Of a stretch of DNA of 64,000 bases, positions 8,037-64,000 are shown piece after piece (position 1 is the first letter of the stretch; every line of letters starts with the position of its first letter). Origin of the DNA: Candidatus Latescibacterota bacterium (lineage in GTDB: Bacteria > Latescibacterota > UBA2968 > UBA8231); contig OZ220089.1 of the NCBI GenBank assembly GCA_964291625.2, positions 2,336,001 to 2,400,000 of the forward strand, given 5' to 3'. The translations under genes were made by a program, and so were the position numbers. The notes under the pieces are model-generated. The model saw only the letters and a list, made by a program, of their open reading frames with translations. It did no database searches and was not told the DNA's origin.

Positions 8037-8044
8037 GGCCTCTT

Positions 8045-8512: not shown

Positions 8513-8521
8513 CGGGTCCCC

Positions 8522-9757
8522 TTATTCGGAGAGCAGGTTGGTGTGCCCCATGCGGTCTCGCTTGGTCCGCAGGTAGCGGATGTTGTGCCGGTTGGGCTCC
8601 GCCGCCAGCGACACTTCCTCGACCACGGTCAGCCCGTAGCCCTCGAGTCCGACGCGTTTGCGCGGGTTGTTGGTCAGCAGCCGCAACTGCCGCAGGCCGA
8701 GGTCGTAGAGGACCTGGGCGCCGATGCCGTAGTCCCGGGCGTCGGCGGGCAGGCCGAGGGCGTGGTTGGCCTCGACGGTGTCGAGACCCTGGCTCTGCTG
8801 CAGCTCGTAGGCCTTGAGCTTGTGAATCAGCCCGATGCCGCGGCCCTCGTGACTCTGGATGTAGACGATCACCCCCCGGCCCTCGGAGGCGATCAGAGAC
8901 ATGGCCCGCTCCAGCTGCTCGCCGCAGTCGCACAGGTGCGAACCGAGGGCGTCGCCGGTGACGCAGGAGGAGTGCATGCGCACCAGTGTCGGCGCGCCGT
9001 CGGCCACATCTCCCATGGCCAGGGCGATGTACGGACTGCCATCGACCAGGGAGCGGTAGGCGTAGACGGTGAACTCGCCGTGCCCCGTGGGCATGGGGGT
9101 CCGGGCCTGCAGCTCGATCAGCTTCTCGGACCGGCGCCGATGGGCGATCAGATCGCGGATGGTGGCGATCTTGAGGCCGTGGCGGGCTGCGAACTCGAGG
9201 AGGTAGGGGGTGGACGCCAGCTCTCCGTCGGCGTCGAGGACCGAGGCCAGGAGCGCTACCGGCTCGACGCCGGCCAGCCGGGCGAGGTCGACGGAGGCCT
9301 CGGTGTGGCCCGCCCTCCGCAACACGCCTCCGGGTTGGGCGGCGATGGGCGTCACGTGGCCGGGCTGCACGAAGTCGGCTCCGCGGCTGTCCGGATCGGC
9401 CAGCCGGCGGATGGTGAGGGCGCGTTCCTGGGCCGAGACCCCGGTGCCCGTCACCTCGCGGGCGTTGACCGAGGTCATGCAGGCCGCGCTCCGCGGGCCA
9501 CCGCCGCCGGGGCGGGCCAGCTCCAGGCCCGACGCCTCGAGCCGCTCGCGGTCGGCGGCGACGTAGACCGGGCCTCCCGCGTGCCGGGTGATGAAGTTGA
9601 CCGAGGCGGCGTCGGCAAGCTCGGCGACCATGACCAGCTCACCCTCGCCCACGACGTCGGACCCGTCCACGTCGACGGCGCGTTCGTCCACCAGGACCAC
9701 CATGCGGCCGGCGGCCAGGTCGTCGATGCTCTCTTCGATGTTGTTGAAGTCGGACAA
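8522..9757 (-). CDS. ribBA: RibBA fusion: degenerate DHBP synthase domain plus GTP cyclohydrolase II
   Basis: GGVLRRAGHTEA in the N half; VRMHSSC...CDCGEQL, EGRGIGL, DARDY, TNNPRK in the C half; TTG start inferred. Confidence 0.9.
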   Translation of the reverse strand: MSDFNNIEESIDDLAAGRMVVLVDERAVDVDGSDVVGEGELVMVAELADAASVNFITRHAGGPVYVAADRERLEASGLELARPGGGGPRSAACMTSVNAREVTGTGVSAQERALTIRRLADPDSRGADFVQPGHVTPIAAQPGGVLRRAGHTEASVDLARLAGVEPVALLASVLDADGELASTPYLLEFAARHGLKIATIRDLIAHRRRSEKLIELQARTPMPTGHGEFTVYAYRSLVDGSPYIALAMGDVADGAPTLVRMHSSCVTGDALGSHLCDCGEQLERAMSLIASEGRGVIVYIQSHEGRGIGLIHKLKAYELQQSQGLDTVEANHALGLPADARDYGIGAQVLYDLGLRQLRLLTNNPRKRVGLEGYGLTVVEEVSLAAEPNRHNIRYLRTKRDRMGHTNLLSE

Positions 9758-49834: not shown

Positions 49835-50005
49835 TCGCGCCGGCCCCGCCCTTCGAGTCGCCGCGGCACAGCCGGGCTCGATTCGGCCCCCAACACTCCG
49901 GCCGAGCCCGCCCGGACCCACCCGGGATCGATTCGGCCCGGCCTGCAACCCCGCCGCGCCGAGCCCGCCGTCACTCCGCGAAACAACCAGGATCGATCCG
50001 CCCCG
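49835..50005 (-). repeat. Degenerate copies of the NUDIX gene 3' end
   Basis: CC(G/A)GG(A/C)TCGAT(T/C)CG core with TCG at 49878, 49928 and in-gene 49993. Confidence 0.55.
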
Positions 50006-50633
50006 TGCGCGCCCAGCCCCGGATGGAGGCGAGGCTGCGCCGGAAGGTGTCGAGGATCTCGTCCGGATAGCCGGTCACCGCCGCCCTCGGCAACTCCTGC
50101 TCGATGACCTCCTCCTCCTCGCCGGCGAAGCGAACCCGGCCCCGCAGGCTCGCCCGCCGCCCGAGGACCAGCTCCGAGAACTCCTCCAGGTCGACCTCGG
50201 CCAGCCCGTCCACCTCGTCGCTGAACCGCAGCCGCTCCAGGTCGAGGGGAACCGGATACAGCAGTAGATGCTGCAGGATGCTGCGGCAGTCGCCCATGGG
50301 CCGCTCCTTGCGGCTCGACCCCAGGTAGAGCAGGTCCGCCGGGGCCGCCGCCAGACCCACCTCCTCCAGCAGCTCCCTCCGCCCGGCGTCCACGGGGGTC
50401 TCGCCGGCGAGGATGTGACCTCCCGCCAGGGCGTCGACCTGGCCGGCGTAGGGGTCCCCCGGGCGCCCGCGGCGTTGCAGGACCATCACCGGCCGCTCCC
50501 CGCGGACGAAGGCGGACCACACGAAGACGAGTCCGTGCAGGTCGTGGTCCCGGTGCACGAGGTGGCGCGGTTTCCGGCCTACGACGCGGCCGTCCTCGGC
50601 GAGCACGTCGAGCAGCTCGGGGGCGGTGCTCAA
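49971..50633 (-). CDS. NUDIX hydrolase (IDI-like)
   Basis: GGHILAGETPVDAGRRELLEEVG Nudix box; TTG overlaps the rhomboid stop. Confidence 0.88.
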   Translation of the reverse strand: MSTAPELLDVLAEDGRVVGRKPRHLVHRDHDLHGLVFVWSAFVRGERPVMVLQRRGRPGDPYAGQVDALAGGHILAGETPVDAGRRELLEEVGLAAAPADLLYLGSSRKERPMGDCRSILQHLLLYPVPLDLERLRFSDEVDGLAEVDLEEFSELVLGRRASLRGRVRFAGEEEEVIEQELPRAAVTGYPDEILDTFRRSLASIRGWARTGRIDPGCFAE

Positions 50634-51436
50634 GAGCTGATGGCGGCGAAGAACTGGAAGAGGAAGGCGAGGACCGTGGCCACGGCGCAGAGGCCGGCCA
50701 GGAGGTAGGTGCCGATGCCCTCGCGCTCGTCCGGCGAGCGGCTGAACATCCAGGCCGCGGCATAGCCGCCGACGAAGCCGCCGCCGTGGGCCCAGTTGTC
50801 GATGTTCGGCATGAGGAGGCCGAAGATGAAGAGCAGCACCGCCCACTGCAGGTACTGGCGGGTGAACAGGTCGGCGCCCCGCCGGCGGCCGTAGGCGATG
50901 GCGGCGGCCAGGAGGCCGAAGATCGACCCCGAGGCTCCCAGGGTGGCGGCGCTGCCCATGGCCACCGAGGCGATGAAGCCGACCGTCCCGGAGATGGTGA
51001 AGATGGCGAACAGCCGCCACGGGCCGAAGAGCTCGCCCACCAGGGGACCGAGCTGCCGCACCCACATGAGGTTGAAGAAGATGTGGAGCAGGCTGCCGTG
51101 GAGGTAGATGGCGGTGATCACCGTCCACCAGCGGCCGAGGTAGAGCACCGGGTACGCGCCCGTCATGCCCGCCTCCAGGGAGGCCCTCGACGACGGCGCC
51201 AGGATGCTCATCAGGCCCCGCGGCTGCAGGACGGCGCCAGGGTCCAGGGCCAGGCACAGCAGGTAGAGGCCGGCGCAGACCACCGTGATCACATGGGGGA
51301 AGTCGAGGCTCAGGCCGAGCTGCCGCATGCGGCTGGCGAGGCCGAACATGCCGGGGCGGATCTGGCCGCAGTACGGACACCGCGGCTCGTCGGCGCTGAT
51401 CAGCTTGTGGCAGCGGGGGCAGAGGATGGCGGCCAT
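50630..51436 (-). CDS. Rhomboid intramembrane protease with N-terminal zinc ribbon
   Basis: CPRC...CPYC; HGSLLHIFFN, GASG, AHGGG. Confidence 0.93.
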   Translation of the reverse strand: MAAILCPRCHKLISADEPRCPYCGQIRPGMFGLASRMRQLGLSLDFPHVITVVCAGLYLLCLALDPGAVLQPRGLMSILAPSSRASLEAGMTGAYPVLYLGRWWTVITAIYLHGSLLHIFFNLMWVRQLGPLVGELFGPWRLFAIFTISGTVGFIASVAMGSAATLGASGSIFGLLAAAIAYGRRRGADLFTRQYLQWAVLLFIFGLLMPNIDNWAHGGGFVGGYAAAWMFSRSPDEREGIGTYLLAGLCAVATVLAFLFQFFAAISS

Positions 51437-52710
51437 CAGATCCCCAGACTCTCGTTGATGTCGTCCTGGTACTCGTGCAGCCGGTCCTGCAGGACCTCGT
51501 CCACCGAGACCGCCCGCCCGGCCGCCTGCGACTCCATCCGGGCGTAGGCCAAGGCCACCGAGCGGGCCCCCAGCCCGCCGTCGACCTCGGGGCGTCCGGC
51601 CTCGCCGGCGATGGCGGCGCCGAAGTCGGCGTACTCCACGGCGATGACCTTGCGGTCGATCACCGCGAACTCGAAGCCGTACTCCCCTAACCGGTCGCCG
51701 CCGAAGAGGGCCGCCGTGGGCCCGTCGAGGCGGAACCCGGGCACCAGGTCGAGCAGCGCGGAGCCGCTCACCGGGTCCTGCCCGGGCAGGTGCAGGGTGA
51801 CGGGCCGGCCGCTGCGGTCGCCCGGCAGGTCCAGCGAGCCGAGGGAGCCGTAGATCGCCCGCTTGCCCAGGTCCTGGCCGCGGGCGGCGTGGTCCTCGAT
51901 GTAGGAGGCCACGGCCCCCGACTGGAAGAGAATCGTGGCGTAGGCGGCGTCATCGGCGGTGGCCTCGAACTCGGCGGGCATGTCCTTCTGCCAGCGGCCG
52001 TACACACCGGCGGGTCCGCCATCGCCGGGCTCCCGGCCCGCGGCCGGGTTCTTGCGCACCGGCTCGTGGAGCCGCGTCTGGGCGTAGACGGTGGTCGCCG
52101 GACCGAGGTAGTACTCGAGGATGTCGGCGAAGTGGACGCCCACGTCGAGCAGCACGCCGCTGGCGTCCTTGCGGTGGCGCCAGACCGAGATCAGCATGCG
52201 GTCGCCGCCGCCGAGGGAGTGCTGCAGCATCAGCCGGGGCTCGCCGATGACGCCGGCGTCGAGGAGCGCCTTGCCGAGGCGGTTCATCGGGTCGCGGCGG
52301 TAGTTCTCGGCCGTGGACAGGACCCGCCCCGCCGCCTCCGCGGCGTCGACCATGATCCGGCAGGCGCGGGCCGTCAGCCCCAGGGGCTTCTCGCACATGA
52401 CGTGCCAGCCCCGGCCGAAGGCCTCCGCCGCGACGGTGTGGTGGGCCCGCGGCGTCGTGGTCAGGTCGATGGCGTGCACCTCGGCGACGGCCGCCAGGGC
52501 CTCCAGCGAGCCGGCCGCCTCCGGGCGCCGGCCGAGCAGCTTCTCCGCCTGGTCCGCCAGGGATGCCGCGTTCTCCTCCACCGGGTCGCAGGCGCCCACC
52601 AGCTCGAAGGGGGACAGACCGGCGCGGGCCAGCTCCGCGAGCCCGTAGAGGTGCCGGTGGCCCATGCCGCCGCAGCCGACGATGGCCAGATGGATGCGCG
52701 ACTCGCTCAT
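51436..52710 (-). CDS. Gfo/Idh/MocA oxidoreductase
   Basis: IVGCGGMG, HVMCEKP, ENYRRDP, DVGVH. Confidence 0.92.
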   Translation of the reverse strand: MSESRIHLAIVGCGGMGHRHLYGLAELARAGLSPFELVGACDPVEENAASLADQAEKLLGRRPEAAGSLEALAAVAEVHAIDLTTTPRAHHTVAAEAFGRGWHVMCEKPLGLTARACRIMVDAAEAAGRVLSTAENYRRDPMNRLGKALLDAGVIGEPRLMLQHSLGGGDRMLISVWRHRKDASGVLLDVGVHFADILEYYLGPATTVYAQTRLHEPVRKNPAAGREPGDGGPAGVYGRWQKDMPAEFEATADDAAYATILFQSGAVASYIEDHAARGQDLGKRAIYGSLGSLDLPGDRSGRPVTLHLPGQDPVSGSALLDLVPGFRLDGPTAALFGGDRLGEYGFEFAVIDRKVIAVEYADFGAAIAGEAGRPEVDGGLGARSVALAYARMESQAAGRAVSVDEVLQDRLHEYQDDINESLGI

Positions 52711-52900
52711 GCTCGATCCGGGAATAGAGAAACAGCCCTGCCCACCGGGGGTGAGAAGGGCTGCGCCACCTGCGCTGCCAGAAAATAGGGGGCCCGGGGG
52801 ATTCACTCCAGCAGCACCCCCCGGAAAGAGGCCCCGTTGCCTATACTCCTCTGCCTCCTCCACCCGGCCCTCTTCACGGCTGAAGACAGCCGCCAAGTGC

Positions 52901-55825
52901 ATGCCTGATCTCACCCTCCTGGTCGGCGGTCCCGGCAGCGGCAAGACGGACCGGATCATCTCGAGGCTGGCCGCCCGGTACGAAGCCGACCCCTTCTCCG
53001 AAGCGGCCGTGCTGGTCCCGACGGTGCGCCACGGAGACCAGTTCCGCCGCCGTCTCGTCGGCCGATGCGGGGTGGCCCTGCGGCTGCGTGTCGAGACGAT
53101 CGCCCAGTTCAGCCGCTCCCTGGCCTCCAACGCGAGGGTCCCCTCCCACTCGCTGGCCGAGGAACTCCTGCGGCGGACCATCCGCCGTGCGATCGAGAGC
53201 GGGCCCGCCGCCTACTTCAAGCCTGTGGCCGAGACCCGGGGGCTGGGGAGCCTCCTCGGCGGCGCCATCGGCGACCTGCTGGCGGAGGGCGTGGATCCCC
53301 GGTCCCTGTCGGAAGCCGCCGGGAGGTCGGGATCACGAAGCCTGCAGGCACTCGGTGCCATCTACGGGGAGTACAGCGACGAACTGAGAGAGGGAGGCTG
53401 GACTCACCCGGTGCAGCTCGGCGCGGCGGCAGCGGACGCCGTCAGGGCGGGTGCGGCCCTGCCCGGCACGATCCTGCTCGACGGCTTCCATCTCTTCCGA
53501 GCGACGGAGATGGACCTCCTCGAAGCCCTCGCCGGGAAGGCCGATGTCGTCGTCACGCTGGACCCGGGTGCTGGCGAGCGTGCGGCGCACGACTGCGAGC
53601 GCCTGCGCCGGCGGTTCCCGAAGGCGGAAGTGACAGAGCTCGCGGAGGATGGTGCAGCACCCCCAACCGTCGTGGCCGGCGCCGCGGCCGACAGGGAAGC
53701 CCAGCTGCGGGCCATGGCGCGCCAGGTCAAGCAGCGCCTGGCCGACGAGCCGTCCCTGCGCCCTTCCGACTTCGCCGTCGCCTTCCGGCAGGCATCGCCC
53801 CACCTGGGCATGGCCCGGCAGGTGTTCTCCGAGTACGACCTGCCCCTCGACCCGGCCGCCGGAGAGCCGTTGAGCGCCCGCCCCCTGGGGGCCTGGCTGC
53901 GCCGCCTGATGCACCTGGCCCGGGACGGCTGGCGCCTGCGCGACGTCGTCGCCGTGCTCTCCAGCGGCTTCGTCGATCGCCGCCGCTGGGGGCTCTCCCG
54001 CGGAGACCTGGCCGCCTTTGCCCGCCGGGCGCGCGGGAACAACCTCTGGGCGAGACTCGACGCGCTGGGCCGCGCCGTGGACGGGCTGCGCACGGAGGCG
54101 GAGGACCCCAAGAGGAGCGACCGGGACCGCGAGTGGCGCCGGGGAGCTGCATCGGCCATGTCGGCCGCCCTGGAGGATCTGCGCACGCTGCTGGAGCGGC
54201 CGGGCGGGACGATGGCGGAGCACGCGCGCCATCTCGACGAAGCGCTCTTCGGCGCTCAGGCCCTGGTCGATCCCCGCTCCAGGAAGGAGCCCGGCGTCGA
54301 CGTGGAGCTCGACGCGCTGCGAGGCCAGCTTCGGGAGCTGATCCATACGCACGAGGTGTTGGGAGGCGGGCCCGAGTCCTTCGAGTCGTTTCTGGCGCGG
54401 CTCGAAGGGAAGTTCGACGCGCCGACGGTGTTGCTGCGCGAGCCCGGCGGCGTCCTCCTCGCGCCGATGCACACCCTGCACGGCCTGCGCTTCGACTTCG
54501 TGGCCATAGGGGGCCTGGTGGAGGGAGAGTTCCCGGCGCCGAGGAGCCACCACTCCCTTCTCGACAGAGAGGCCATCGAGGCGCTGAATCGCTGCGGCCT
54601 CGGAGTCCCCCCGCTGGCCCGGCTCTCGGAGGATGAGCTGTGGAAGTCGGTCTCCACTCGCGCCGACCGTGTGCTGTCCCTGTGGAGGACCCGGCTCAAC
54701 GAACGCGGCCGATCGGTGGCGGCTTCCTACTACTACGACAGCCTGCCGTCCGACGCGCGCATCGAGGCGGGAACGTCCACGCCCGAAACAGCCGGCTCGG
54801 CGCGCGAGCTGGCCATCGCCTGCACCTGGCAGTGGCCGAACCATGGCCGGCTGCGGCCGCGTGCGGAGCCCGCCTGGCCCATCGTGCGCTCTGCCGTCGC
54901 GGTCGAGCAGCTCCGCCGTTCGTTCTCGGATGCGGGTGAGTACGAGGGCCGCCTGACCGATGGATTGGTGCCCAGGCTCACGGGTGCCTGCGCCACCTGG
55001 AGCGCCAGCCGGATCGAGTCCTACCAGACCTGCGCCTTCCAGTTCTTCGGCCAGTACGCCCTCCGCCTGCGGGAGGTCGAGGAGGAACTGGAGAGCGCTG
55101 ACGCCGCCATCCGGGGCAGCGTCGTTCACGACATCCTGCAGGACGCAGTCGCTCCCCTTGTGGAGCAGGGCCGCCCGCTGGTTTCCGATACACTTCCCGA
55201 GGTGCTGGCGCGTCTCCGGGCCAACGGCCCCGGCCTGTGGAACAGCGCCCCCGCGCGGATGGGCTTCGGCCGGGCCGCCCTCTGGCGGCTGGATGCGGAG
55301 GACACCTTCCGGAAGATGGAGCTGCTCCTGCAGCGGGAGGCCGAGCGGAGCGGGCAGTCGGGAGTGACACGGATCATCGGCGCCGAGCAGGAGGTCGAGG
55401 CCTCGCTCCCGCTGGATCCGCCCTTGCGCCTGAAGGCCACCATCGACCGACTGGAGGAGGGCGAGGGAAAAGTGGTGATCGTCGACTACAAGTCAGGCAG
55501 ACCGTTCTCGCGGGCCGACCTCGCGGAAGGACGCCGTGTCCAGCTTCAGCTCTATGGGTACGCCGGACGCGACGGGACAGGGGCGGAGAGGATCATCGCC
55601 CGCTACGCCTGGCTCGATCCCCAGGCCAGGGAGTGGGATCTCGACTCCTCGCGCCCCGAGGACTCCCTGCTGCTGGACCATGTCGCCGAGGTCGCCCGGC
55701 AGGTTCGCGATGCCGTCGACTCGGGCGACTTCCGAGTCAACCCAAAGGTGAAGCCCTGTCCGACCTACTGCTCGTTCCGCCACGTCTGCCGGGTCAACGG
55801 ATTCAGTCGATGGAAATGGGAGTGA
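52901..55825 (+). CDS. addB: AddB-like subunit with C-terminal Fe-S PD-(D/E)XK nuclease
   Basis: GGPGSGKT; WSASRIESYQTCAF; ATIDRL, IVDYKS, QLQLY; CPTYCSFRHVC. Confidence 0.85.
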   Translation: MPDLTLLVGGPGSGKTDRIISRLAARYEADPFSEAAVLVPTVRHGDQFRRRLVGRCGVALRLRVETIAQFSRSLASNARVPSHSLAEELLRRTIRRAIESGPAAYFKPVAETRGLGSLLGGAIGDLLAEGVDPRSLSEAAGRSGSRSLQALGAIYGEYSDELREGGWTHPVQLGAAAADAVRAGAALPGTILLDGFHLFRATEMDLLEALAGKADVVVTLDPGAGERAAHDCERLRRRFPKAEVTELAEDGAAPPTVVAGAAADREAQLRAMARQVKQRLADEPSLRPSDFAVAFRQASPHLGMARQVFSEYDLPLDPAAGEPLSARPLGAWLRRLMHLARDGWRLRDVVAVLSSGFVDRRRWGLSRGDLAAFARRARGNNLWARLDALGRAVDGLRTEAEDPKRSDRDREWRRGAASAMSAALEDLRTLLERPGGTMAEHARHLDEALFGAQALVDPRSRKEPGVDVELDALRGQLRELIHTHEVLGGGPESFESFLARLEGKFDAPTVLLREPGGVLLAPMHTLHGLRFDFVAIGGLVEGEFPAPRSHHSLLDREAIEALNRCGLGVPPLARLSEDELWKSVSTRADRVLSLWRTRLNERGRSVAASYYYDSLPSDARIEAGTSTPETAGSARELAIACTWQWPNHGRLRPRAEPAWPIVRSAVAVEQLRRSFSDAGEYEGRLTDGLVPRLTGACATWSASRIESYQTCAFQFFGQYALRLREVEEELESADAAIRGSVVHDILQDAVAPLVEQGRPLVSDTLPEVLARLRANGPGLWNSAPARMGFGRAALWRLDAEDTFRKMELLLQREAERSGQSGVTRIIGAEQEVEASLPLDPPLRLKATIDRLEEGEGKVVIVDYKSGRPFSRADLAEGRRVQLQLYGYAGRDGTGAERIIARYAWLDPQAREWDLDSSRPEDSLLLDHVAEVARQVRDAVDSGDFRVNPKVKPCPTYCSFRHVCRVNGFSRWKWE

Positions 55826-58800
55826 CATCGGAGCAGGCGGGGATCCTGGCCGAGCGCGGCCGTGACGTGCTGGTCACCGCCGGCGCCGGCAGCGGCAAGA
55901 CGAGTGTCCTCGTCGATCGCTACGTCTCCCTCCTCGCGGAGCACCGCATCTCCGAGATGGCGGCCGTCACCTTCACCGACGCCGCCGCCACCGAGATGCG
56001 CGAGCGCGTGCGGCGGGAGGTGCTCACGAGGGAGGAGCTGAGCCATCACCGGGCGGAGATCGACGACGCCATCATCGGCACCATCCACTCCTTCTGCCTC
56101 CGGATCCTGCGGGAGCATCCCGTGGAGGCGGCCATCGATCCGGCCACGAGGGTCCTCTCCGATGACGAGGCCGAGTTCGAGCTGACCAGGGCCTGCATCG
56201 ATGCCCTGGAGGCGGCCGCCGACGCCGACGACCAGCGGGCCCTGGCGCTGCGGGAGCTCGGTCTGTACGCGGCGACCCTCCAGCTTCCCCTGATGGTTGC
56301 CCGACGCGACGAGGTCGAGGACGCGTACCAGGCGCTTCCGGGAGACTCGGTGGAGGAGTGGGCGGACCATGTCCGGGGGCTGCTGGACGAGACGCTCCGG
56401 GCGGCGGTGGAAGAGGCGCGCCCGCAGCTGGCGGAGCGGGCGGCGTGGCTGAGAGCTGCCCTTGAAGGCTCCGGAGACGATGCCCTGTCCTCGCGCCTGC
56501 GCGACTGTCTGGCGGCCTTGGGCGACCCAAATGCCGGAGACTGGTCCGAGCTGCTGGCCCGCGTCGAGGAGGCGGGGGGCAGAGTCAACCTGAGAGGCGG
56601 CAGTGCGCGGAACTGGGCGGTGGACATCAAGGAGGTCAAAGAGGCCATGGGCTCGATCCGGGACATGGTCAAGGGGTTCAATGCCCTCCCTCGCTGGAAC
56701 GAGCACGACCAGATCGCCCTCGAGGCCCTCGCATCCCTGCGGACTCTCTTCAGGGACGCCTGCCATCGCTACGCCGCCCGCAAGCGGGAGCTGGTGGCCC
56801 TGGACTATCTCGACCTCGAGATCATGGCCACGCAGCTGCTCGGCTCCCATCCGGAGATCGCCGCCTCCTACGGGTCCCGCCTGCGCCACCTGATGGTGGA
56901 CGAGCTTCAGGACACCAACCCCACCCAGATCGCATTCCTCGACCTCCTGAAGGGACCCGAGCGGTTCTTCGTCGGCGACGTGAAGCAGGCGATCTACCGC
57001 TTCCGCGGAAGCGATGTCCGCAACTTCACGCGCCTCCACAAACAGATCGCGGCCTCCGGCGCCATCCACTCCCTGAGCCAGTCCTTCCGCGCCCACGACC
57101 CGCTCGTCGACTCGCTCAACACCCTCTTCGAGCATGTCTTCGCGGACCCGCGGGAGGAGTTCGAGGCGCCGATGCAGGCGATGACCGGACGAGGGGATGA
57201 TGCGCCCCAGTCGCCGCACCTGGTGCTGCTGCCGGTCGCCAATCAAACGCCCGCGGGCGACAAGACCGGCGACGACGACCGCCGAAGGGTCGAGGCGGAT
57301 GCCGTGGCCGCCGAGGTGGCGAGGCTGCTGCGCCGTCCCGCCATCGTGTGGGACAGGGACGAGGGCGGACACCGCCCTGCACGGGCGTCCGACGTGGCGG
57401 TCCTGCTCCGCCGCCTGACGAACGTCCACCTCTTCGAGCAGGCCCTGGAGAGCCACGACGTCTCCTGCCGCACCGTGGCCGGCGCCGGGTTCTTCACCAG
57501 GCAGGAGGTCCTCGACCTCACCAACCTCCTGGGGTGGCTGGCCGAGTCGGACGACACCATCGCCCTGGCGGGAGCCCTGCGGTCGCCGCTGTTCACGATC
57601 GACGACCAGTCCCTGCTGGCGCTCCGGTCCCATGGCCCGAATCTCCTCAGAGCGCTCGGGGACCCGCCCGAGTCCCTGCCCCCGGAGGTGCGCCAGCTCT
57701 GCCGGCATGCCACCGAGGTGCTCCAGGAACTGCGACGCGGTGTCGCATTCCTGCCGGCCGACGCGCTCCTCGAGAGAGCCCTGGCCCTCACGGGATTCGA
57801 GGCCGCGTGGGCGCCTCTGCAGGGAGGCGATCAGGCGCTGGCCAACATCCGCAAGTTCGTGGACCTGGCCCGGCAGCTGGCCGGCAACTCCCTCGACGAG
57901 TTCGTGACCTACGTCCGGCGCCGGCGGGACGAGCTGCAGGCCCGCGAAGGCCAGGCCGTCCTCGACCAGTCCGACGCCGTGCGGCTGCTGACCGTGCACG
58001 GAGCCAAGGGCCTCCAGTTCCCCATCGTCTTCGTGCCGGAAGCCCATCTGCCGTCGCGTGTGAGCTACGAGGCGGTCCGCTGGCGTACCGGGGAGGGCAT
58101 CTCCGTCACGCTGCAGAAGGAGGTCGAGTCGGACGAGACCAGCCGCCGGCGCCCGGGGTTCTACTCCTACCTCGTGGAACGGGACAAGGCGGAAGAGGCG
58201 GCCGAGCACAAGCGGCTGTTCTACGTGGCGGCCACCCGTGCGGCCGACGTGCTGTACATCACCGGCGATGATTCGACACGGTCCGATGCATGGCTCACGG
58301 CCGCTCGGAGTGCCCTCGGCGCGGCCCCGGGAGGAGTGGAGATCCGTTCACCCATGCCCGTGGACCTCAAGGCGGTCGCCGACCGGGTGCCGCCCAGGTC
58401 GGTGGAGGTCCCCCCGGAGGACGAGGAAGAGGACTTCACGGCGCCGCTGGCGGCCCGGCCGCCGGTGATCCCCCTGCGCTCCAGCACCCCGGTGACCTCC
58501 CTGCGACTGGAGGAGCCCTCCCGCGGCGGCTACTTCCACCACGGCGACGGTCTCGGCCTGGTCCGCGGCAGCCTCGCCCACGATGCCATCGAGGACTGGT
58601 TCAGGACCGGAGAGCGTCCCGCCCTGGACGAGTTGACCCGCAAGATCGACAGCGGTCTGGGAGAGCAGGCCGTGCGCAGGGTTGCCGCCGAAGTCGACGG
58701 CATGCTGGACATCTTCGACGCCAGCCCGCTGGCGGAGACCCTGCGGGACGGGGGTACCCGCGCCTGGTGCGAGCTGCCCTTTTCGTGGAACTGGGACGGC

Positions 58801-59121
58801 GTGCCGGTACACGGCACCATCGACCTCGCCTACGAGACCGAGGGCACCTGGCATGTTCTCGACTTCAAGACCGACGATCTGCGGGGCCGGTCGCTGGCCG
58901 AGGCTTCGCAGGCCTACCTGCCTCAGCTAGCCCTCTACGCTGCCGCCCTGGAGAGGGCCGTCGGTGGCTCCCCGGTCCCGGGGCTGATGTTCCTGCGGAC
59001 CGGCGATGTGTACCTCCCGCCGCCCGCGGACCTGGTCCAGGCGCTGGCAACCACCCGCGGCCGGATCGATCACGGGGACCTGGTCGATGCGCCACCACAG
59101 GATCGCGATCATGTCATCTGA
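55810..59121 (+). CDS. addA: AddA-like UvrD helicase-nuclease
   Basis: AGAGSGKT, TFT, TIHSFC, VDELQDTN, VGDVKQAIYRFRG, TVHGAKGLQF, YVAATRA; nuclease GTIDL..DFKT..QLALY. Confidence 0.9.
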   Translation: MEMGVTSEQAGILAERGRDVLVTAGAGSGKTSVLVDRYVSLLAEHRISEMAAVTFTDAAATEMRERVRREVLTREELSHHRAEIDDAIIGTIHSFCLRILREHPVEAAIDPATRVLSDDEAEFELTRACIDALEAAADADDQRALALRELGLYAATLQLPLMVARRDEVEDAYQALPGDSVEEWADHVRGLLDETLRAAVEEARPQLAERAAWLRAALEGSGDDALSSRLRDCLAALGDPNAGDWSELLARVEEAGGRVNLRGGSARNWAVDIKEVKEAMGSIRDMVKGFNALPRWNEHDQIALEALASLRTLFRDACHRYAARKRELVALDYLDLEIMATQLLGSHPEIAASYGSRLRHLMVDELQDTNPTQIAFLDLLKGPERFFVGDVKQAIYRFRGSDVRNFTRLHKQIAASGAIHSLSQSFRAHDPLVDSLNTLFEHVFADPREEFEAPMQAMTGRGDDAPQSPHLVLLPVANQTPAGDKTGDDDRRRVEADAVAAEVARLLRRPAIVWDRDEGGHRPARASDVAVLLRRLTNVHLFEQALESHDVSCRTVAGAGFFTRQEVLDLTNLLGWLAESDDTIALAGALRSPLFTIDDQSLLALRSHGPNLLRALGDPPESLPPEVRQLCRHATEVLQELRRGVAFLPADALLERALALTGFEAAWAPLQGGDQALANIRKFVDLARQLAGNSLDEFVTYVRRRRDELQAREGQAVLDQSDAVRLLTVHGAKGLQFPIVFVPEAHLPSRVSYEAVRWRTGEGISVTLQKEVESDETSRRRPGFYSYLVERDKAEEAAEHKRLFYVAATRAADVLYITGDDSTRSDAWLTAARSALGAAPGGVEIRSPMPVDLKAVADRVPPRSVEVPPEDEEEDFTAPLAARPPVIPLRSSTPVTSLRLEEPSRGGYFHHGDGLGLVRGSLAHDAIEDWFRTGERPALDELTRKIDSGLGEQAVRRVAAEVDGMLDIFDASPLAETLRDGGTRAWCELPFSWNWDGVPVHGTIDLAYETEGTWHVLDFKTDDLRGRSLAEASQAYLPQLALYAAALERAVGGSPVPGLMFLRTGDVYLPPPADLVQALATTRGRIDHGDLVDAPPQDRDHVI

Positions 59122-59944
59122 ACCGATGCTGTACGAAATGCACATGCACACCCCGCTCTGCAACCACGCCCGCGGCGAACCGGAGGAGTATGCCGAAGTG
59201 GCCCTGCAACGGGGCCTGAAGGGGATCGTGGTCACCGACCACAACCCCACGAACGACGGCTGGTCGCCGGAGGCGCGGATGGGCGTGGACGAACTCGACG
59301 ACTACGTGGCCATGGTCGAGCGCGCCCGCCAGGCCTGGGCCGGCCGGGTCGATGTCCGCCTTGGCATGGAGAGCGATTACGTGCCCGGCATGGAGCCCTG
59401 GCTGGAGAAGCTGCACGGCATGGCCGGATTCCACCACGTGCTCGGTTCGGTCCATCCCCAGCTCCCTCAATACCTCGACCGCTTCGACCGGGGGGATGTG
59501 GACGCCTTTCGCGGCACCTATTTCGAGCATCTGGCCCTGGCCGCCGAGACCGGCCTGTTCGACACCCTCGCCCATCCCGATCTGGTCAAGAATTCCTCGC
59601 CGTCGGACTGGTGCCCGGAGCGGGCCATGGACCATATCCTCCCCTGTCTCGACCGCATCGCCGCCACCGGCGTGGCCATGGAGCTGAACACCTCGGGCCG
59701 CAACAAGGCGTATGCCGAGATGAACCCGGGACCGGCCATGTTGGCGGAGATGGCGAGGCGCCGCATTCCGGTGGTCATCGGCGCGGACGCCCACGACCCC
59801 CGGCGGGTCGGCGACGGTCACGTCGACGCCCTCGGCATGCTCCAGGAGGCCGGATACAGCCATGTGAGCATGTTCCTCCACCGGCGGCGTCAGGACCTGC
59901 CCATCGACCGGGTGCGAGCCAGTCTGACCCCGGGGCCGCGTTAG
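59111..59944 (+). CDS. PHP-family histidinol-phosphatase-like (HisJ/HisK)
   Basis: HMHTPLCNHA, TDH, GSVH, AHPDL, ELNTSG, GADAH. Confidence 0.88.
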   Translation: MSSEPMLYEMHMHTPLCNHARGEPEEYAEVALQRGLKGIVVTDHNPTNDGWSPEARMGVDELDDYVAMVERARQAWAGRVDVRLGMESDYVPGMEPWLEKLHGMAGFHHVLGSVHPQLPQYLDRFDRGDVDAFRGTYFEHLALAAETGLFDTLAHPDLVKNSSPSDWCPERAMDHILPCLDRIAATGVAMELNTSGRNKAYAEMNPGPAMLAEMARRRIPVVIGADAHDPRRVGDGHVDALGMLQEAGYSHVSMFLHRRRQDLPIDRVRASLTPGPR

Positions 59945-59976
59945 GACATGTTCAGGGCAGGGAGTATCGTTCCCCC

Positions 59977-60738
59977 ATGCGAGCACTGATCCTGGGAGCG
60001 GGCCGGGGCCGCCGCCTCAAGGCCCTCACCGACGAGCAGCCGAAGCCGTACGCCCCCATCGGCGGCCGGCGCATCCTCGACTGGCTGCTGCAGGCCCTGG
60101 GCGAAGCCGGCGTCAGCGACTTCGTCTTCATCGGCGGTTACCGCATCGACCAGGTCCGCGGCGACTACCCGCACCTGACCTTCTGCCACAACCCCGACTG
60201 GGAGAGCACCAACATCCTCGCCTCCCTCATGTGCGCCGAGGATCACATGGACGGCGGCTTCCTCGTCACCTACGCCGACATCCTCTACCGGTCCTCCGTC
60301 GTGGGCCGGGCCCTCGACCATCCCGGCGACGCCGTCCTCTGCGTCGACACCCGCTGGCGGGAGCGCTACGCCGACCGCAGCCAGCACCCCGAGGACGACG
60401 CCGAGAAGGTCCTCGCCGAGGGCGACCGCGTGCTGCGGATCAGCCGCGGGCTCCCCTCCTCCGAGGCCTGCGGCGAGTACATCGGCGTGGCCCGGTTCTC
60501 GGCCGCCGGCGCCGCCGCCCTGCGCCGCCACTACCACCGGGTGCGGGCCAGCTACAACGGGCAGGTCTGGAAGGACGGGACCACCTTCCGCCAGGCCTAC
60601 CTCATCCATCTCTACGAGGACATGCTCGAACAGGGAGAGAGGTTCCACATGGTGACCACCGGAGGCGAGTACGCCGAAGTCGACACCGAGGAGGACTACG
60701 CCCTCGCCAACGAGAGCTGGCCCCGGAGGTACTCCTGA
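59977..60738 (+). CDS. LicC/PntC-like cytidylyltransferase
   Basis: ILGAGRGRRL..LT..PK, GYR, TNILASL, YADI, GEYIG, EVDT; TATCGT 6 nt before the ATG suggests a leaderless start. Confidence 0.85.
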   Translation: MRALILGAGRGRRLKALTDEQPKPYAPIGGRRILDWLLQALGEAGVSDFVFIGGYRIDQVRGDYPHLTFCHNPDWESTNILASLMCAEDHMDGGFLVTYADILYRSSVVGRALDHPGDAVLCVDTRWRERYADRSQHPEDDAEKVLAEGDRVLRISRGLPSSEACGEYIGVARFSAAGAAALRRHYHRVRASYNGQVWKDGTTFRQAYLIHLYEDMLEQGERFHMVTTGGEYAEVDTEEDYALANESWPRRYS

Positions 60739-61826
60739 TGCCCACCCTCGTCGAACGTCGCGGAAGCCTCTTCCCCACATCGGTCGTCGGCTCCCTGCCC
60801 AGGCCCGGGTACGTGCGCGAGATCGTCGTCGACGGACGCCGGGACGAAGGCTGGCAGCGGCGCCTCGACACCGCCGTGGCCCACGCCGTCTCGCTGCAGG
60901 AGGCGGCCGGCCTCGACGTCGTCTCCGACGGCGAGTGGAGGCGCGCTTCCTACATCGGGATCATCGCCGAGCTGGCCGACGGCTTCGAGGTGAGCCAGAC
61001 CGAGGACGGCCGCCCGTGGACGGTGGTCACCGGGGCGGTGGAGGTCCGGGACCAGGGAGTCGTGGCCGCCGAGGTCGAGCACCTGCGCTCGCTGACCGAC
61101 CGCCTGATCAAGGTGGCCTTGCCGTCGCCGGCCCTGCTGGCCGAGCGCATGTGGGACGAGGATCTGTCCATCGAAGCCTACGAGACGCCCCGCGCCTTCG
61201 CCGAGGCCGTGGCGCCGGTCCTGCGGCGCGAGGCCGAGCTGGTCGTCGAAGCCGGCGCCGACATCGTGCAGGTCGACGACCCCCACCTGTGCCTGCTCGT
61301 CGACCCCGAGGTCCGCGCCCACTACGACGACGAGGATTGGGACGCCGACGAGGAGGCCGCCTTCTCGGTGGACATGGACAACGAGGTCCTCGTGGGCATC
61401 GCCGGCGAGGCCGTGCGCGCCGTGCACCTCTGCCGCCGCGCCGGCGCCCGCGTCCGCGGCGAGGCCTACCACAGCGGCGACTACACCGCCATCGTCCCCG
61501 CCCTGGAGCAGCTCGACACCGACCACCTGACCCTGGAGTTCACCAACCCCGGCGCCGGCGCCGTGGAAGTCCTGGAGCAGTTACCCGATCACCTGGAGAT
61601 CGGCCTCGGCTGCGTCAGCGTCCACCCCGGCGAGATCGACGACGCCGCCCAGATCGTGGAGCGAGTGGAGCAGGCCGTGGAGGTGATCGGCGCCGAGCGC
61701 ATCGTCCTCAACCCCGACTGCGGCTTCGCGCCGGGGTCGGCGGCGCGGGTGGATCTGGATGAGGTTTATCGGAAGCTGCAGTACCAGGCGGAGGCGGCGC
61801 GGCGGTTGAGGGGGATCTACGGGTGA
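60738..61826 (+). CDS. Core (single-barrel) cobalamin-independent methionine synthase family protein
   Basis: VVGSLPRP, SDGEWRR, VQVDDP, HLC, LE, NPDCG zinc ligands; TGATG coupling. Confidence 0.88.
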   Translation: MPTLVERRGSLFPTSVVGSLPRPGYVREIVVDGRRDEGWQRRLDTAVAHAVSLQEAAGLDVVSDGEWRRASYIGIIAELADGFEVSQTEDGRPWTVVTGAVEVRDQGVVAAEVEHLRSLTDRLIKVALPSPALLAERMWDEDLSIEAYETPRAFAEAVAPVLRREAELVVEAGADIVQVDDPHLCLLVDPEVRAHYDDEDWDADEEAAFSVDMDNEVLVGIAGEAVRAVHLCRRAGARVRGEAYHSGDYTAIVPALEQLDTDHLTLEFTNPGAGAVEVLEQLPDHLEIGLGCVSVHPGEIDDAAQIVERVEQAVEVIGAERIVLNPDCGFAPGSAARVDLDEVYRKLQYQAEAARRLRGIYG

Positions 61827-61964
61827 GGGAAGGCTGGACGTACCATGGCCAGCGCGGATTGGTCGACGGCGATTTCGCGAATGGGGTCGTTCTACGACAA
61901 TCTCTCGCGGAATCTCAGGTCACTCTGCGGTAAACTCTCGCCAAATCCCAGGAGGTATGGGCGT

Positions 61965-62324
61965 ATGACCTGCGGCACCTGCAACGAGACCGTGAAGTCT
62001 GTGGGCACCATCCGGGTGGATCTGTCGACGGACCAGAAGATCTACTTCTCACCAAACGCTGAACACTCTGCTTCGGGCAACGGCAAGCACTACGCAGTGT
62101 TCCTTCCGGACGGCGGATGCACGAACGGGGTCGCAATCCCTTTCTGCGACCCGCTCCGAGGTCTTCCGATTAAGTTGGGATGCTCCCCTAAGCTGTCCGA
62201 CCTTGTCGCAGCCGCTGCGCAGCAGACAGCGGTCGAAGTCAAAGTCAAAGCCAAAGTCACCAAGAAGGCAGAGAACTTGACTTTGGAGAGCATCGTCATT
62301 CCTGGCCCCCGTACGAAGAGATGA
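61965..62324 (+). CDS. Small Cys-rich hypothetical protein (119 aa)
   Basis: AGGAGG at 61950-61955 before ATG 61965; begins MTCGTC; stop overlaps the next start (ATGA); low-GC codons. Confidence 0.65.
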   Translation: MTCGTCNETVKSVGTIRVDLSTDQKIYFSPNAEHSASGNGKHYAVFLPDGGCTNGVAIPFCDPLRGLPIKLGCSPKLSDLVAAAAQQTAVEVKVKAKVTKKAENLTLESIVIPGPRTKR

Positions 62325-64000
62325 GATCCCGCTCCCCAACGGTCCTGTTCTGGGGGGCCGGTGCGACTGCATCCCTCGGGATTCACATGACGGAGCACCA
62401 AGGGCAATTCCTCCGTGCGCTCACACCCCTTCCTGAACGGTCGGAGAGACTCGAGGACCGAGTTCGCAGTGCCCTCGCGGAAGACATTTCGGACAAGTGG
62501 GTATCGGCGTTCTGCGACCTCCTCAAGATTCTCGGAGACAGCGAGGAGGGCACCGAGGACAGGCTCTCAGCTGCTGACGTCCGCACCGAGCAGATAGAGG
62601 CGATGAAGGACAACTGGGAATCCCAAGAGGATGAGGCGCTCCGCCAACGCATTGTCGAGCTGCGCGGCCTTTACGACTGGCCAGCGCTGGTGGCCGCCAT
62701 CAACGTGTGCCCAAGGGGCGTCCCCCGCGACGCCGGGGGCGAGCGGCATGAGCCCCAATTCAAGCTAGTTGACCTCTTCAACCTTCTGGACATGCACGAG
62801 CAGAGCGGTCATGGGTTCCCGGACCGACAGCAGAGGTTTCTCCCCCCGCAACGGGTCATCGGTGCCCGGGGGGCATTGGTACTGCTCATCCAAGCCCTGA
62901 TCTACGTTGACTGGCATTCCCGCGCCCGAGACTGCCCGGACCTTCAGCACCACTTGGCGTTCGGCCTCGAGCTCGGTCGCAAGGTGCAACGTGAAGGCCT
63001 GAGGTTCGACACGGAGGCTGGACCTGACGACTTCGAGCTGGACGACTTCATCCAGGGGGACGTGAGCGTCGTGAGCATGAACTGGGACCCGGTAGGGCTA
63101 TGGGCCCAATTCTTGGCGAATCGCTCCCTAAACCAAGCTTCCAATGTGCCGCACGTCGGTTGTCCGGCCTATAGGCTACAGCTCTACCACGATCTCGGCT
63201 ACTTCGTGGCGGGGCCCAGAGTTGACAAGGGGCACGCCGGAAACAGCGTCTGGCAACCCATGAACATCTCGTCCGCCAGGCAACTCAATGATCGCACCCA
63301 CGGAGCGAACCTGCGGATTCGCGTGAGCAAGTATCTCTTTCCGCACGGGTGCCTGTGGTGGCGCGAGTGCCCGAACTGCGGAAAGCTGTCATCCTACATT
63401 GGGGACAAGTGGGAGATGAGTTCGGAATCGCTGCTCCCCCCGCCCCCGCTCAGGGCCTTCGTGCAAGACCGGCACTTTGAGAGCTGGCTCGAAAATGACA
63501 AGGAGAGATGTAGATGGCACATGGGTGAAGTTGATGTCCGCGCTTGCGTCCATTGCAGGCACTTGACCTATGCGCACCACACACCCCTGATGATGCAAAC
63601 GAGCTTCAAAACCGCGCCACCGCCTTTCCTTGAGGAGATACAGCGCGAAATGCGTGTGGTAGTGCAGGAAGCAAAACACGTCGTTCTAGTCGGATACTCC
63701 CTGCCTCCCGACGACGTCACCTACCGCGCCTTCCTCGCTGCAAGAATCCGTAAGAGTTCCGAGCACGGAGAGGACGCGGTTCGGTGCAGCGTGATCGGCA
63801 AGGAAGTCGGCTACGAGAGCCGATGGCTCTATCCCGAAGAGCTCGATACCAAGGGCAGACTCCCTGATGCGGTGAAGCACGCACGTGAGGTTTTCCAGGC
63901 CAAGAACGTCAGATTTTTCGGTTCCGGGGTCCCTGATGTCTTCCTGGACGGCGCCGAAGGCGTCTCCCAAAGTGCTGTCGAGCGAGTGCTCACTTGGGAA
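62321..64000 (+). CDS. SIR2-like (sirtuin-fold) protein, 3' end outside the window; absent from the ORF track
   Basis: Manual translation gives 560 codons without a stop: VLFWGAGAT, VVSMNWD, FPHGCL, CPNC...CVHC, VLVGYSLPPDD. Confidence 0.85.
   Translation, partial: MRSRSPTVLFWGAGATASLGIHMTEHQGQFLRALTPLPERSERLEDRVRSALAEDISDKWVSAFCDLLKILGDSEEGTEDRLSAADVRTEQIEAMKDNWESQEDEALRQRIVELRGLYDWPALVAAINVCPRGVPRDAGGERHEPQFKLVDLFNLLDMHEQSGHGFPDRQQRFLPPQRVIGARGALVLLIQALIYVDWHSRARDCPDLQHHLAFGLELGRKVQREGLRFDTEAGPDDFELDDFIQGDVSVVSMNWDPVGLWAQFLANRSLNQASNVPHVGCPAYRLQLYHDLGYFVAGPRVDKGHAGNSVWQPMNISSARQLNDRTHGANLRIRVSKYLFPHGCLWWRECPNCGKLSSYIGDKWEMSSESLLPPPPLRAFVQDRHFESWLENDKERCRWHMGEVDVRACVHCRHLTYAHHTPLMMQTSFKTAPPPFLEEIQREMRVVVQEAKHVVLVGYSLPPDDVTYRAFLAARIRKSSEHGEDAVRCSVIGKEVGYESRWLYPEELDTKGRLPDAVKHAREVFQAKNVRFFGSGVPDVFLDGAEGVSQSAVERVLTWE

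Follow-up and report, generated by a model that had tools for sequence, protein, structure and literature searches.

Organisation of the locus

Two genes on the forward strand lie at the end of the window (the whole 64,000-nt stretch of Candidatus Latescibacterota contig OZ220089.1 analysed here): a small gene and, overlapping its end, a longer gene encoding a SIR2-fold protein (Table 1). The overlap is as described in the first-pass annotation, with the ATG of the long gene and the TGA of the small gene sharing an ATGA at 62321. Translation recovers the 119-aa, five-Cys ORF that it had reported at 61965 (C3, C6, C52, C61, and C73), and the strong ribosome-binding site assigned to this gene is present as AGGAGG at 61950-61955, 9 nt before the ATG. 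An alternative start at 61845, which would lengthen the small ORF to 159 aa, was rejected, as relatives give it no support.

The 560-codon frame from 62321 holds both on translation and on reading the genome onward, which places the stop codon 1-3 nt beyond the window, so that the 560 aa represent the entire protein. The genome's own gene call (P0003) is 538 aa long and starts at M23. We consider 62321 the better start, since alignments of relatives begin at approximately residue 7 and include the GAG motif.

Table 1. Features of the two-gene locus (window coordinates; residues refer to the 560-aa protein).
Feature	Coordinates	Strand	Description
5' leader of inserted cassette	61828..61964	+	Same-genus similarity stops at L002 1827-1836
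Small partner gene	61965..62324	+	119-aa ORF; predicted beta-barrel, no known family; IPGP-RTKR tail at end
SIR2-fold gene	62321..64000	+	560 aa; stop codon at 64001-64003, just past the window edge
GAGAT, NAD-binding glycine motif	62354..62368	+	Residues 12-16; G12 and G14 invariant
Helical insert	62390..63016	+	~210 residues (24-232); from predicted secondary structure and conservation among 30 relatives
SMNWD	from 63074	+	Residues 252-256
N254-W-D256, sirtuin NxD-type catalytic motif	63080..63088	+	From conservation
PHGCL	from 63341	+	Residues 341-345
H342-G343, catalytic-type His	63344..63349	+	Invariant
Putative zinc-ribbon module, C350-x2-C353 ... C409-x2-C412	63368..63556	+	Four Cys invariant in 54 sequences; CPNC, residues 350-353 (63368); CVHC, residues 409-412 (63545)
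GYSLPPDD	63692..63715	+	Residues 458-465; G458 invariant

The SIR2-fold protein

The sirtuin motifs read from the long frame in the first-pass annotation match the translation exactly, in both order and position. Across 54 relatives, some with as little as 22% identity, G12, G14, N254, H342, C350, C353, C409, C412, and G458 show no variation, and the protein has a predicted SIR2 fold; the motifs therefore go beyond chance. D256 is invariant only among the 30 closer sequences, and Y459, S460, P462, D464, and D465 of the GYSLPPDD motif are kept in at least 90%. The Rossmann-type NAD-binding fold of the predicted model superposes on solved sirtuins, and the GAG glycines, the catalytic-type Asn, and the catalytic-type His occur in sirtuin order. 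After this His comes a putative four-Cys module, as in classical deacylase sirtuins; its wide spacing, which had been pointed out earlier together with the catalytic-type residues, is supported by the model and by conservation in the 54 sequences. The spacer is 55 residues long and conserved (with PPPP at 373-376), each Cys pair lies at a short strand pair in the predicted model, and Pfam Zn_ribbon_3 weakly matches 6 of the 54 members. The helical insert has invariant patches of its own among 30 relatives (YDWP 118-121, DxFN 151-154, and HGF 164-166). Judging by the description of PsSIR2 in excerpts of PMC11472057, it probably sits where sirtuins have their helical small domain.

The long gene had been called unannotated, and this proved correct: Pfam, PADLOC, and NCBIfam give no match. 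For Pfam this extends to E values up to 0.1. Neither protein is matched by any curated defence model (PADLOC, E up to 0.1), which we count against an immune role. Across the family, Pfam SIR2 (PF02146) matches 0/54 members at E up to 0.01, while SIR2_2 (PF13289) matches three (best E 5.1e-5, under the curated cut-off), the PADLOC model SIR2 (PDLC04092) six (best E 9.9e-5), and Aga_SIR2 one, weakly (E 0.0022). The nearest cluster to the enzyme in the protein atlas is named 'SIR2-like domain-containing protein'. PDB sequences searched with profiles of the enzyme and small-protein alignments gave nothing meaningful (best E 0.43 and 1.5). The family numbers 690 proteins at E up to 1e-3; a separate count gives 304 clusters at 50% identity.

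The small partner protein

The small protein has no family match in Pfam, PADLOC, or NCBIfam, and the protein atlas held nothing usable for it (best score 0.86). Its predicted model (pLDDT 87.6) contains eight strands and one helix. A word-based search gave only two relatives, and a profile built from the ORFs upstream of enzyme genes was used instead. The description 'Cys-rich' does not extend to the family: Cys counts range from 0 to 10 in 25 relatives, and a Cys-rich peptide or metal binder was rejected on this ground. A conserved ssDNA-binding role was also rejected, as the pI spans 4.8 to 10.4 across relatives and the OB-like fold matches of the model are weak, at noise level; both points also weigh against the immune reading.

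Pairing and co-divergence

Coupling of the two genes, proposed from the overlap in this one locus, is borne out across phyla. A six-frame profile search detects a homologue of the small gene immediately 5' of the enzyme gene, in the same orientation, in 29 of 47 loci. Of the 18 misses, three offer less than 200 nt of upstream DNA, leaving 44 testable loci; the small gene is thus found in 29/44, from many phyla, with no detectable copy in 15/44 (a result that counts against the immune reading). In L041 and L046, among the latter, ORFs resembling the small gene can be seen by eye. The profile has no matches elsewhere in the six-frame translations of these loci at E up to 1. Of 25 loci, 16 have a 4-nt overlap between the stop and start codons and five a 1-nt overlap (some starts were placed by hand). 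Distances of the small protein and the enzyme correlate (Mantel r 0.77; none of 2000 permutations reached this value), and pairwise identity averages 25% for the small protein versus 50% for the enzyme.

In nine loci (L017, L018, L026, L027, L031, L034, L040, L044, and L045), the enzyme gene is intact and full-length but no small gene is detectable. This is evidence against the small protein being an obligate inhibitor, as in one half of the earlier proposal of a 'sensor or inhibitor'; a sensing role is kept below as a candidate. An apparent fused form in L018 was discarded: the 737-aa ORF arises by reading through a GC-rich spacer, which yields an Arg-rich stretch, and the true start is MARIPRT.

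Module limits and insertion site

Similarity to same-genus genomes ends just after a MetE-like stop codon at 61824-61826. In the same-genus genome G007, the MetE-like stop is followed after 27 nt by the ATG of a restriction enzyme, with the pair missing between them; as these flanks abut, the pair is a 2.4-kb insertion. Two further genomes (G002 and G006) have different DNA between the same flanks. A GC scan agrees with the lower GC content noted for both genes relative to the host, giving 0.58-0.64 across 62000-63999 and 0.67-0.75 across 50000-61499 (surroundings about 0.70). The pair was not found in 36 same-family genomes, and the enzyme gene tree cuts across phyla and is incongruent with taxonomy. 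The pair is foreign, horizontally acquired DNA in a variable, defence-type hotspot. No terminal repeats were found at the insertion borders and no sigma-70-like promoter site in the leader; a single terminator-like site, on the minus strand, is below the shuffled mean of 1.8. Searches of plasmid and phage collections found no copy, which again counts against an immune function.

Next to the pair in this genome are genes for an MmeI-type IIG restriction enzyme (PADLOC 2.6e-297) and a TIR-like protein (2.4e-10). The restriction enzyme stands at the same site without the pair in G007, where the TIR-like gene is unmatched, and neither gene is kept with the pair elsewhere; both were therefore rejected as parts of the module, which we limit to two genes. 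No third gene is conserved: every other neighbour family is limited to 5/47 loci or fewer. The first-pass annotation had allowed for possible further genes beyond the window, and this is not supported: the genome was read past the window, and the downstream genes are not conserved with the pair. By raw count, 19/45 other loci have a defence- or mobility-type gene nearby (restriction-modification, toxin-antitoxin, integrase, transposase, or similar). The remaining 26/45 have metabolic or unknown neighbours only, which counts against the immune reading. These counts cover the four nearest ORFs per locus, by family names and without a background set.

Comparison with known SIR2 systems

SIR2 domains are among the commonest effectors in bacterial immunity. 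To our knowledge, every characterised SIR2 immune system has a known sensor partner (TIR, HerA, Argonaute, STAND, or long fused domains). The partner described here had been judged unlike those of Thoeris, DSR, SIR2-HerA, and SPARSA, and we agree, as none of these is conserved beside the enzyme gene. A SIR2 system partnered by a small barrel protein was not named in the full-text literature searched, large predicted catalogues excepted.

The SIR2 subunits of SIR2-HerA (Nezha) systems, such as PsSIR2 (8w9l) and E. coli Sir2 (8j4u, 8sub), are among the closest known proteins, at 12% identity. No HerA-type ATPase occurs among 164 nearest-neighbour ORFs or in the pair's own locus. The enzyme also differs from SIR2-HerA in its helical insert of ~210 residues, and its partner is instead a barrel protein of 100-130 aa. 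According to excerpts of PMC11472057, N163, D165, and H212 are putative NADase residues of PsSIR2, whose helical small domain is autoinhibitory; these residues are the counterparts of the NxD-type and His positions of the enzyme. The same excerpts report that bacterial defence SIR2 proteins, including those of SIR2-HerA, lack the four-Cys zinc module, which is tied to deacetylase function; the enzyme described here keeps one. Unlike the classical deacylase sirtuins (Sir2-Af1 [1ici], Sir2Tm, SIRT1-7, and CobB), however, it has no Pfam SIR2 match, Cys pairs 55 residues apart, and a much larger helical domain, and its gene is accessory, horizontally moved, and accompanied by a dedicated partner.

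Thoeris pairs ThsA (SIR2-SLOG) with ThsB (TIR), whereas the enzyme matches no ThsA model and has no SLOG domain; sirtuin alignments span residues 3-555, leaving no room for such an extra domain. The TIR-like gene here lies beyond the restriction gene, and no TIR gene is conserved in 46 other loci. DSR1 and DSR2 are single genes joining SIR2 to a long C-terminal sensor, in contrast to a 560-aa protein without a PADLOC match at E up to 0.1. In DSR1/DSR2, Avs5, and SPARSA, large sensor parts are fused or paired; here there is no STAND NTPase, APAZ, or Argonaute (for SPARSA, no APAZ domain and no short Argonaute neighbour was found in the loci examined), the protein consists of a single SIR2 domain plus inserts, and the sensor candidate is encoded separately as a small protein. 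The SirTM operon with its macro domain and GcvH-L also differs, as a macro domain, a lipoate ligase, and a GcvH-like neighbour are all missing and the small protein is a predicted beta-barrel without a lipoyl-carrier match.

Proposed function and alternatives

We propose that the pair is a self-contained, horizontally mobile, two-gene anti-phage immune module with an NAD-consuming, sirtuin-fold enzyme, a reading to which we give about even odds (approximately 50%), and that it is a candidate for an undescribed variant of SIR2-based immunity. We infer protein binding, NAD+ hydrolysis, a phage trigger, and a defence outcome as follows. The 560-aa protein would be an NAD-using enzyme whose enlarged helical small domain keeps it switched off; the small beta-barrel protein, its production coordinated with that of the enzyme by way of the overlapping stop and start codons, would bind it as a fast-evolving sensor or gate. 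A phage component may then bind or displace the small protein, whereupon the enzyme would open or oligomerise and consume NAD+, halting the infected cell and the phage with it.

Retention of a zinc module tied, in excerpts of PMC11472057, to deacetylase function makes a protein-directed reaction possible. The enzyme might accordingly modify proteins or nucleic acids by ADP-ribose transfer or acyl removal on a macromolecule rather than deplete NAD+, with the small barrel acting as a targeting subunit or as the substrate, its conserved tail ([IV]PAP ending in Lys or Arg in the family) lying in the peptide cleft; such an enzyme could still act in phage conflict. We regard this as unlikely, although it is the alternative that we would rank highest: the closest structures to the model are NADase effectors, the tail is short, variable, and missing in part of the family, the small gene is missing beside nine intact enzyme genes, and the neighbourhood shows no conserved macro domain, lipoyl-carrier, or further SirTM partner of the known kinds. 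We would be more doubtful of a new cross-phylum, two-component immunity in which the rapidly evolving barrel is a phage sensor gating a sirtuin that retains the zinc module of the peptide cleft and, beyond consuming NAD+, ADP-ribosylates a specific phage or host macromolecule; if true, this would parallel DarT-type targeted modification, with a sirtuin as the modifying enzyme.

The arrangement of a small gene placed first and overlapping a larger enzyme gene, as in type II toxin-antitoxin systems, would also fit an addiction pair in which the SIR2 protein acts as a toxin that destroys NAD+ constitutively, countered by the small protein as labile antitoxin, and which stabilises the island whether or not it also acts against phages. 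Fast divergence of the small protein, its co-divergence with the enzyme, and the location of the pair in mobile, patchy DNA are consistent with this idea. We nevertheless find it rather improbable, since a type II toxin would not be expected intact without its antitoxin, and nine solo enzyme genes are hard to square with a constitutive toxin. The small protein also lacks a DNA-binding domain for autoregulation, and autoinhibition of the related PsSIR2 comes from within, through its small domain (excerpts of PMC11472057). Least probable in our estimate is a sirtuin with a routine regulatory role and an accessory subunit, unconnected to phage defence and in a variable region by chance. The classical zinc module, the lack of phage or plasmid copies in our searches, and the 26/45 loci with only metabolic or unknown neighbours favour such an enzyme, but its foreign GC content, the failure to find it in 36 same-family genomes, its clean insertion into a hotspot with other cargo in sister genomes, a gene tree at odds with taxonomy, and the lack of a conserved metabolic neighbour all argue against it.

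The locus belongs to a sizeable sirtuin family that Pfam, PADLOC, and NCBIfam do not recognise and whose partner falls into no known family. Should phage defence be its function, the pair would represent a new sensing logic for NAD-based immunity. As the zinc module lost in other defence SIR2 proteins is kept, the family may bridge housekeeping deacylase sirtuins and immune NADases. It has cultured carriers in Paenibacillus, including Paenibacillus sp. DMB5 and P. sinensis, as well as in Massilia, Sporolactobacillus, and Dendrosporobacter, which makes the pair directly testable.

The gene pair

Each element of the pair described in the first-pass annotation was found again when the window (G000:C1:2336001-2400000) was re-read: the small ORF with its five cysteines, its ribosome binding site (AGGAGG, 9 nt 5' of the ATG), the overlap between its TGA and the long ORF's ATG at 62321, the position of each enzyme motif, and the lowered GC content, which is 0.58-0.64 across the pair versus 0.67-0.75 upstream. 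When the genome is read past the window end, the stop of the long ORF lies at 64001-64003, which makes the protein complete at 560 residues and leaves no hidden domain past the window.

Features of the pair and genes nearby, at its own locus (window numbering; L002 is the stretch covering this locus) and at other loci with enzyme relatives
Feature	Position	Strand	Details
Small ORF	61965-62324	+	119 aa, five Cys
Enzyme (long) ORF	62321-64000	+	560 aa
Motif GAGAT	enzyme residues 12-16
Motif SMNWD	enzyme residues 252-256
Motif PHGCL	enzyme residues 341-345
Motif CPNC	enzyme residues 350-353
Motif CVHC	enzyme residues 409-412
Motif GYSLPPDD	enzyme residues 458-465
MmeI-family type IIG restriction-modification enzyme	L002 4239-7079 (64239-67079, past window end)		PADLOC PDLC03627, 2.6e-297; Pfam MmeI domains
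TIR-like gene	L002 7144-8139 (67144-68139, past window end)		331 aa; PADLOC 'Effector TIR' 2.4e-10
Bpu10I and methylase	L009
Eco57I-type enzyme	L004, L019
C5 methylase	L018
GmrSD	L031
ThiF/JAB with DUF6527	L027

Enzyme fold and family

The large protein is predicted to be a SIR2-fold enzyme that sequence libraries miss. Neither protein of the pair has a match in Pfam, PADLOC or NCBIfam at E up to 0.1, and a profile of 30 enzyme relatives found nothing meaningful among PDB sequences. A 30-sequence alignment gave a confident AlphaFold2 model (pLDDT 82.8, pTM 0.86). SIR2 chains from entries for SIR2-HerA/Nezha rank first among its Foldseek matches (E 1e-6 to 7e-4), ahead of PsSIR2, KomBC, classical sirtuins and SPARSA. 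Across 54 family members, down to 22% identity, 12 residues are invariant: G12, G14, N254, N323, H342, C350, C353, C409, C412, Q426, G458 and G536. The structural matches and four of these residues (G12, G14, N254 and H342) support the sirtuin assignment first read from the motifs.

Sirtuin structure alignments cover residues 3-555, so the enzyme consists of one SIR2 domain carrying two enlarged inserts. A helical insert of about 210 residues (24-232) follows the GAG motif and has invariant patches of its own among 30 relatives (YDWP, DxFN and HGF). A zinc module lies directly after the catalytic-type His, with its CxxC pairs 55 residues apart; the invariance of the four cysteines and the short strand pairs around them suggest that they cluster together. 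According to PMC11472057, PsSIR2 has a small helical domain that autoinhibits its NADase pocket, and its putative catalytic residues are N163, D165 and H212; bacterial defence SIR2s are described there as lacking the zinc finger found in sirtuins of archaea and eukaryotes. The family thus unites the enlarged helical domain of the defence type with the zinc module of deacylases.

The family is large and anonymous: 690 proteins score at E up to 1e-3 (among 8000 candidates scored), with 304 representatives at 50% identity. Among the matches listed, none of 120 relatives has a precomputed Pfam domain, and the three named entries are all 'hypothetical protein'. Weak sequence matches come from distant members and involve PADLOC SIR2 PDLC04092 (6/54, best E 9.9e-5), Pfam SIR2_2 (3/54, best E 5.1e-5) and Zn_ribbon_3 (6/54); the nearest protein-atlas cluster is named 'SIR2-like domain-containing protein'. 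In one representative, P0269 (824 aa), the C-terminal half of the SIR2-like protein (query residues 362-542) is joined to a long ankyrin-repeat region, either as a true fusion or through an error of assembly.

The small partner

The small gene is genuinely paired with the enzyme gene, and the pairing is conserved. A word-based search retrieved only two relatives of the small protein. Same-strand ORFs upstream of the enzyme in the 46 loci returned by a genome scan have a common pattern: GT[IV]x[IV], FxPxx[DE][HY]S, [YF]AVF, and [IV]PAP after the last strand. A profile seeded with 17 of these ORFs, and then remade with the sequences it had matched, scores in 29 of 47 loci (the 46 and the own locus) and, at E up to 1, nowhere else in their six-frame translations. 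The match ends -14 to +33 nt from the enzyme match in 28 of the 29; in L032 the copy is truncated and lies 159 nt away. The small gene's stop codon overlaps the enzyme's start by 4 nt in 16/25 loci and by 1 nt in 5/25; some of the enzyme starts counted here were placed at the overlap by us, so that the truly conserved feature is the relative reading frame. Divergence is correlated between the two proteins (Mantel r 0.77, a value that 0 of 2000 permutations reached), and the small protein evolves about twice as fast (25% mean pairwise identity, versus 50% for the enzyme). The proposed coupling is borne out by this correlation and the profile matches.

Eighteen loci have no small-gene match. Three have less than 200 nt of upstream DNA (L021, L023, L029), five adjoin broken enzyme genes (L036, L041, L042, L047, L048), nine have an intact enzyme (L017, L018, L026, L027, L031, L034, L040, L044, L045), and L046 has an ORF that looks alike by eye. 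At L031, a 152-aa ORF with hydrophobic, membrane-like stretches (5516-5974) overlaps the enzyme start and is a possible alternative partner.

The confident model of the small protein (pLDDT 87.6, pTM 0.79) has eight strands and one helix, in agreement with its earlier description as beta-rich; its fold matches are OB-like only and do not rise above noise (best E in Foldseek: 0.013 against the PDB, 0.004 against viral models). The family is defined by neither cysteines nor charge: relatives contain 0-10 Cys, so that 'Cys-rich', as the window's gene was first described, is not a family trait, and their pI ranges from 4.8 to 10.4. In the small protein of the closest relative (L008 5594-6004, 50% identical to that of the window), the C-terminal KSITIPAP segment is duplicated in tandem.

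Insertion site and spread

Sequence comparison indicates a mobile module of two genes. In the same-genus genome G007, the type IIG enzyme (MTPGDF...) has its ATG 27 nt past the stop of a MetE-like gene. Similarity to G007 breaks at L002 1827 and resumes at 4249; the pair, its leader and its 3' spacer therefore form a 2.42-kb insertion (window 61828-64248). With similarity resuming only there, the ATG at L002 4251 (MTPGDF...) is probably the true start of the type IIG gene, in place of 4239. Within the genus, the site that runs from the MetE-like gene (window 60231-61826) to L002 about 8160 is a variable hotspot: between its flanks G007 holds the restriction enzyme only, and unrelated DNA fills about 8 kb in G002 and about 13 kb in G006.

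Two defence-type genes follow downstream of the pair, the type IIG enzyme and the TIR-like gene. The latter, which has no match in G007 and the lowest GC content of the island (0.54-0.56), looks like a separate single-gene insertion in this hotspot. Its product has an N-terminal CxxC...CxxC zinc ribbon and a TIR-like or nucleoside-deoxyribosyltransferase-like C-terminus (Pfam Nuc_deoxyrib_tr 1.6e-5, below cut-off; ThsB models only at E about 0.03).

A search of 36 same-family genomes did not find the enzyme gene, and 24 same-class genomes gave only a 75-aa remnant, in one of them. A quick maximum-likelihood tree of 36 full-length copies, from which eleven loci were dropped as having no single open frame across residues 15 to 530, mixes phyla freely: the own copy clusters with one from Latescibacterota, and a copy from Chloroflexota with one from Pseudomonadales. 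Copies with the small gene occur on either side of the midpoint root and 4-6 changes are needed (L029 scored 'none' although untestable, its upstream DNA being short), which fits an old pairing with several losses.

Predicted function

The enzyme carries the residues of an NAD-using sirtuin and is structurally closest to autoinhibited immune NADases. It moves in a cassette together with a stoichiometrically coupled, fast-evolving partner, and the cassette inserts in defence hotspots. Our preferred reading, at a probability of about 0.5, is an abortive-infection module in which the sensor or gate would be the small barrel protein, and the sirtuin, once released, would deplete NAD+. Because intact solo enzyme genes exist, the enzyme would be self-inhibited, and its partner would tune triggering and not be an essential antidote. 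A plain toxin-antitoxin addiction pair seems doubtful. Targeted modification of a macromolecule, by ADP-ribosylation or deacylation, is favoured by the retained zinc module and by the conserved tail of the small protein, and is unlikely but somewhat better placed than addiction; a sirtuin with a non-defence role is the least probable of these readings.

The abortive-infection module would work like SIR2-based immunity, but it lacks the partners or domains that define SIR2-HerA, Thoeris, DSR, SPARSA and SirTM; for the first four, this agrees with the architecture having been called unfamiliar at first pass. In the full texts covered by our literature searches, no sirtuin system with a small barrel partner appeared; large prediction catalogues may already list the module unnamed. 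Having cultured carriers, the module makes a solid and testable candidate, one among many unvalidated candidates.

Neighbouring genes at other loci

The first-pass suggestion of further module genes beyond the window found no support: in an all-against-all neighbour comparison, no other family is common to more than five loci. The one reaching five, an FGE-sulfatase-domain gene, does so in closely related genomes. In three related genomes of Gammaproteobacteria (L012 7690-8754, L013 7665-8810, L014 7509-8657) it is the next gene 3' of the pair, in the same orientation, and the domain is present elsewhere in L022 and L025; its place beside the pair may reflect simple synteny or mark it as a local third component.

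Up to four nearest ORFs per locus were scanned (164 ORFs from 45 loci; the contig of L039 holds no neighbour). Restriction-modification, toxin-antitoxin, integrase, transposase or comparable families occur at least once in 19/45 loci (13/23 and 6/22 by batch), a raw count, read from Pfam names, that is only suggestive of a defence context. Besides those in the table, neighbours include Phd and HI1420-type antitoxins, PIN domains, integrases and IS200/IS605 elements; at the remaining 26 loci they are metabolic or of no known function. At L027, a DUF6527 gene and a ThiF plus prokaryotic-JAB gene (7682-9438, minus strand) adjoin a solo enzyme copy, with a UvrD/PIF1-type helicase and DUF5131 upstream; we take the former two to resemble ubiquitin-like conjugation defence operons.
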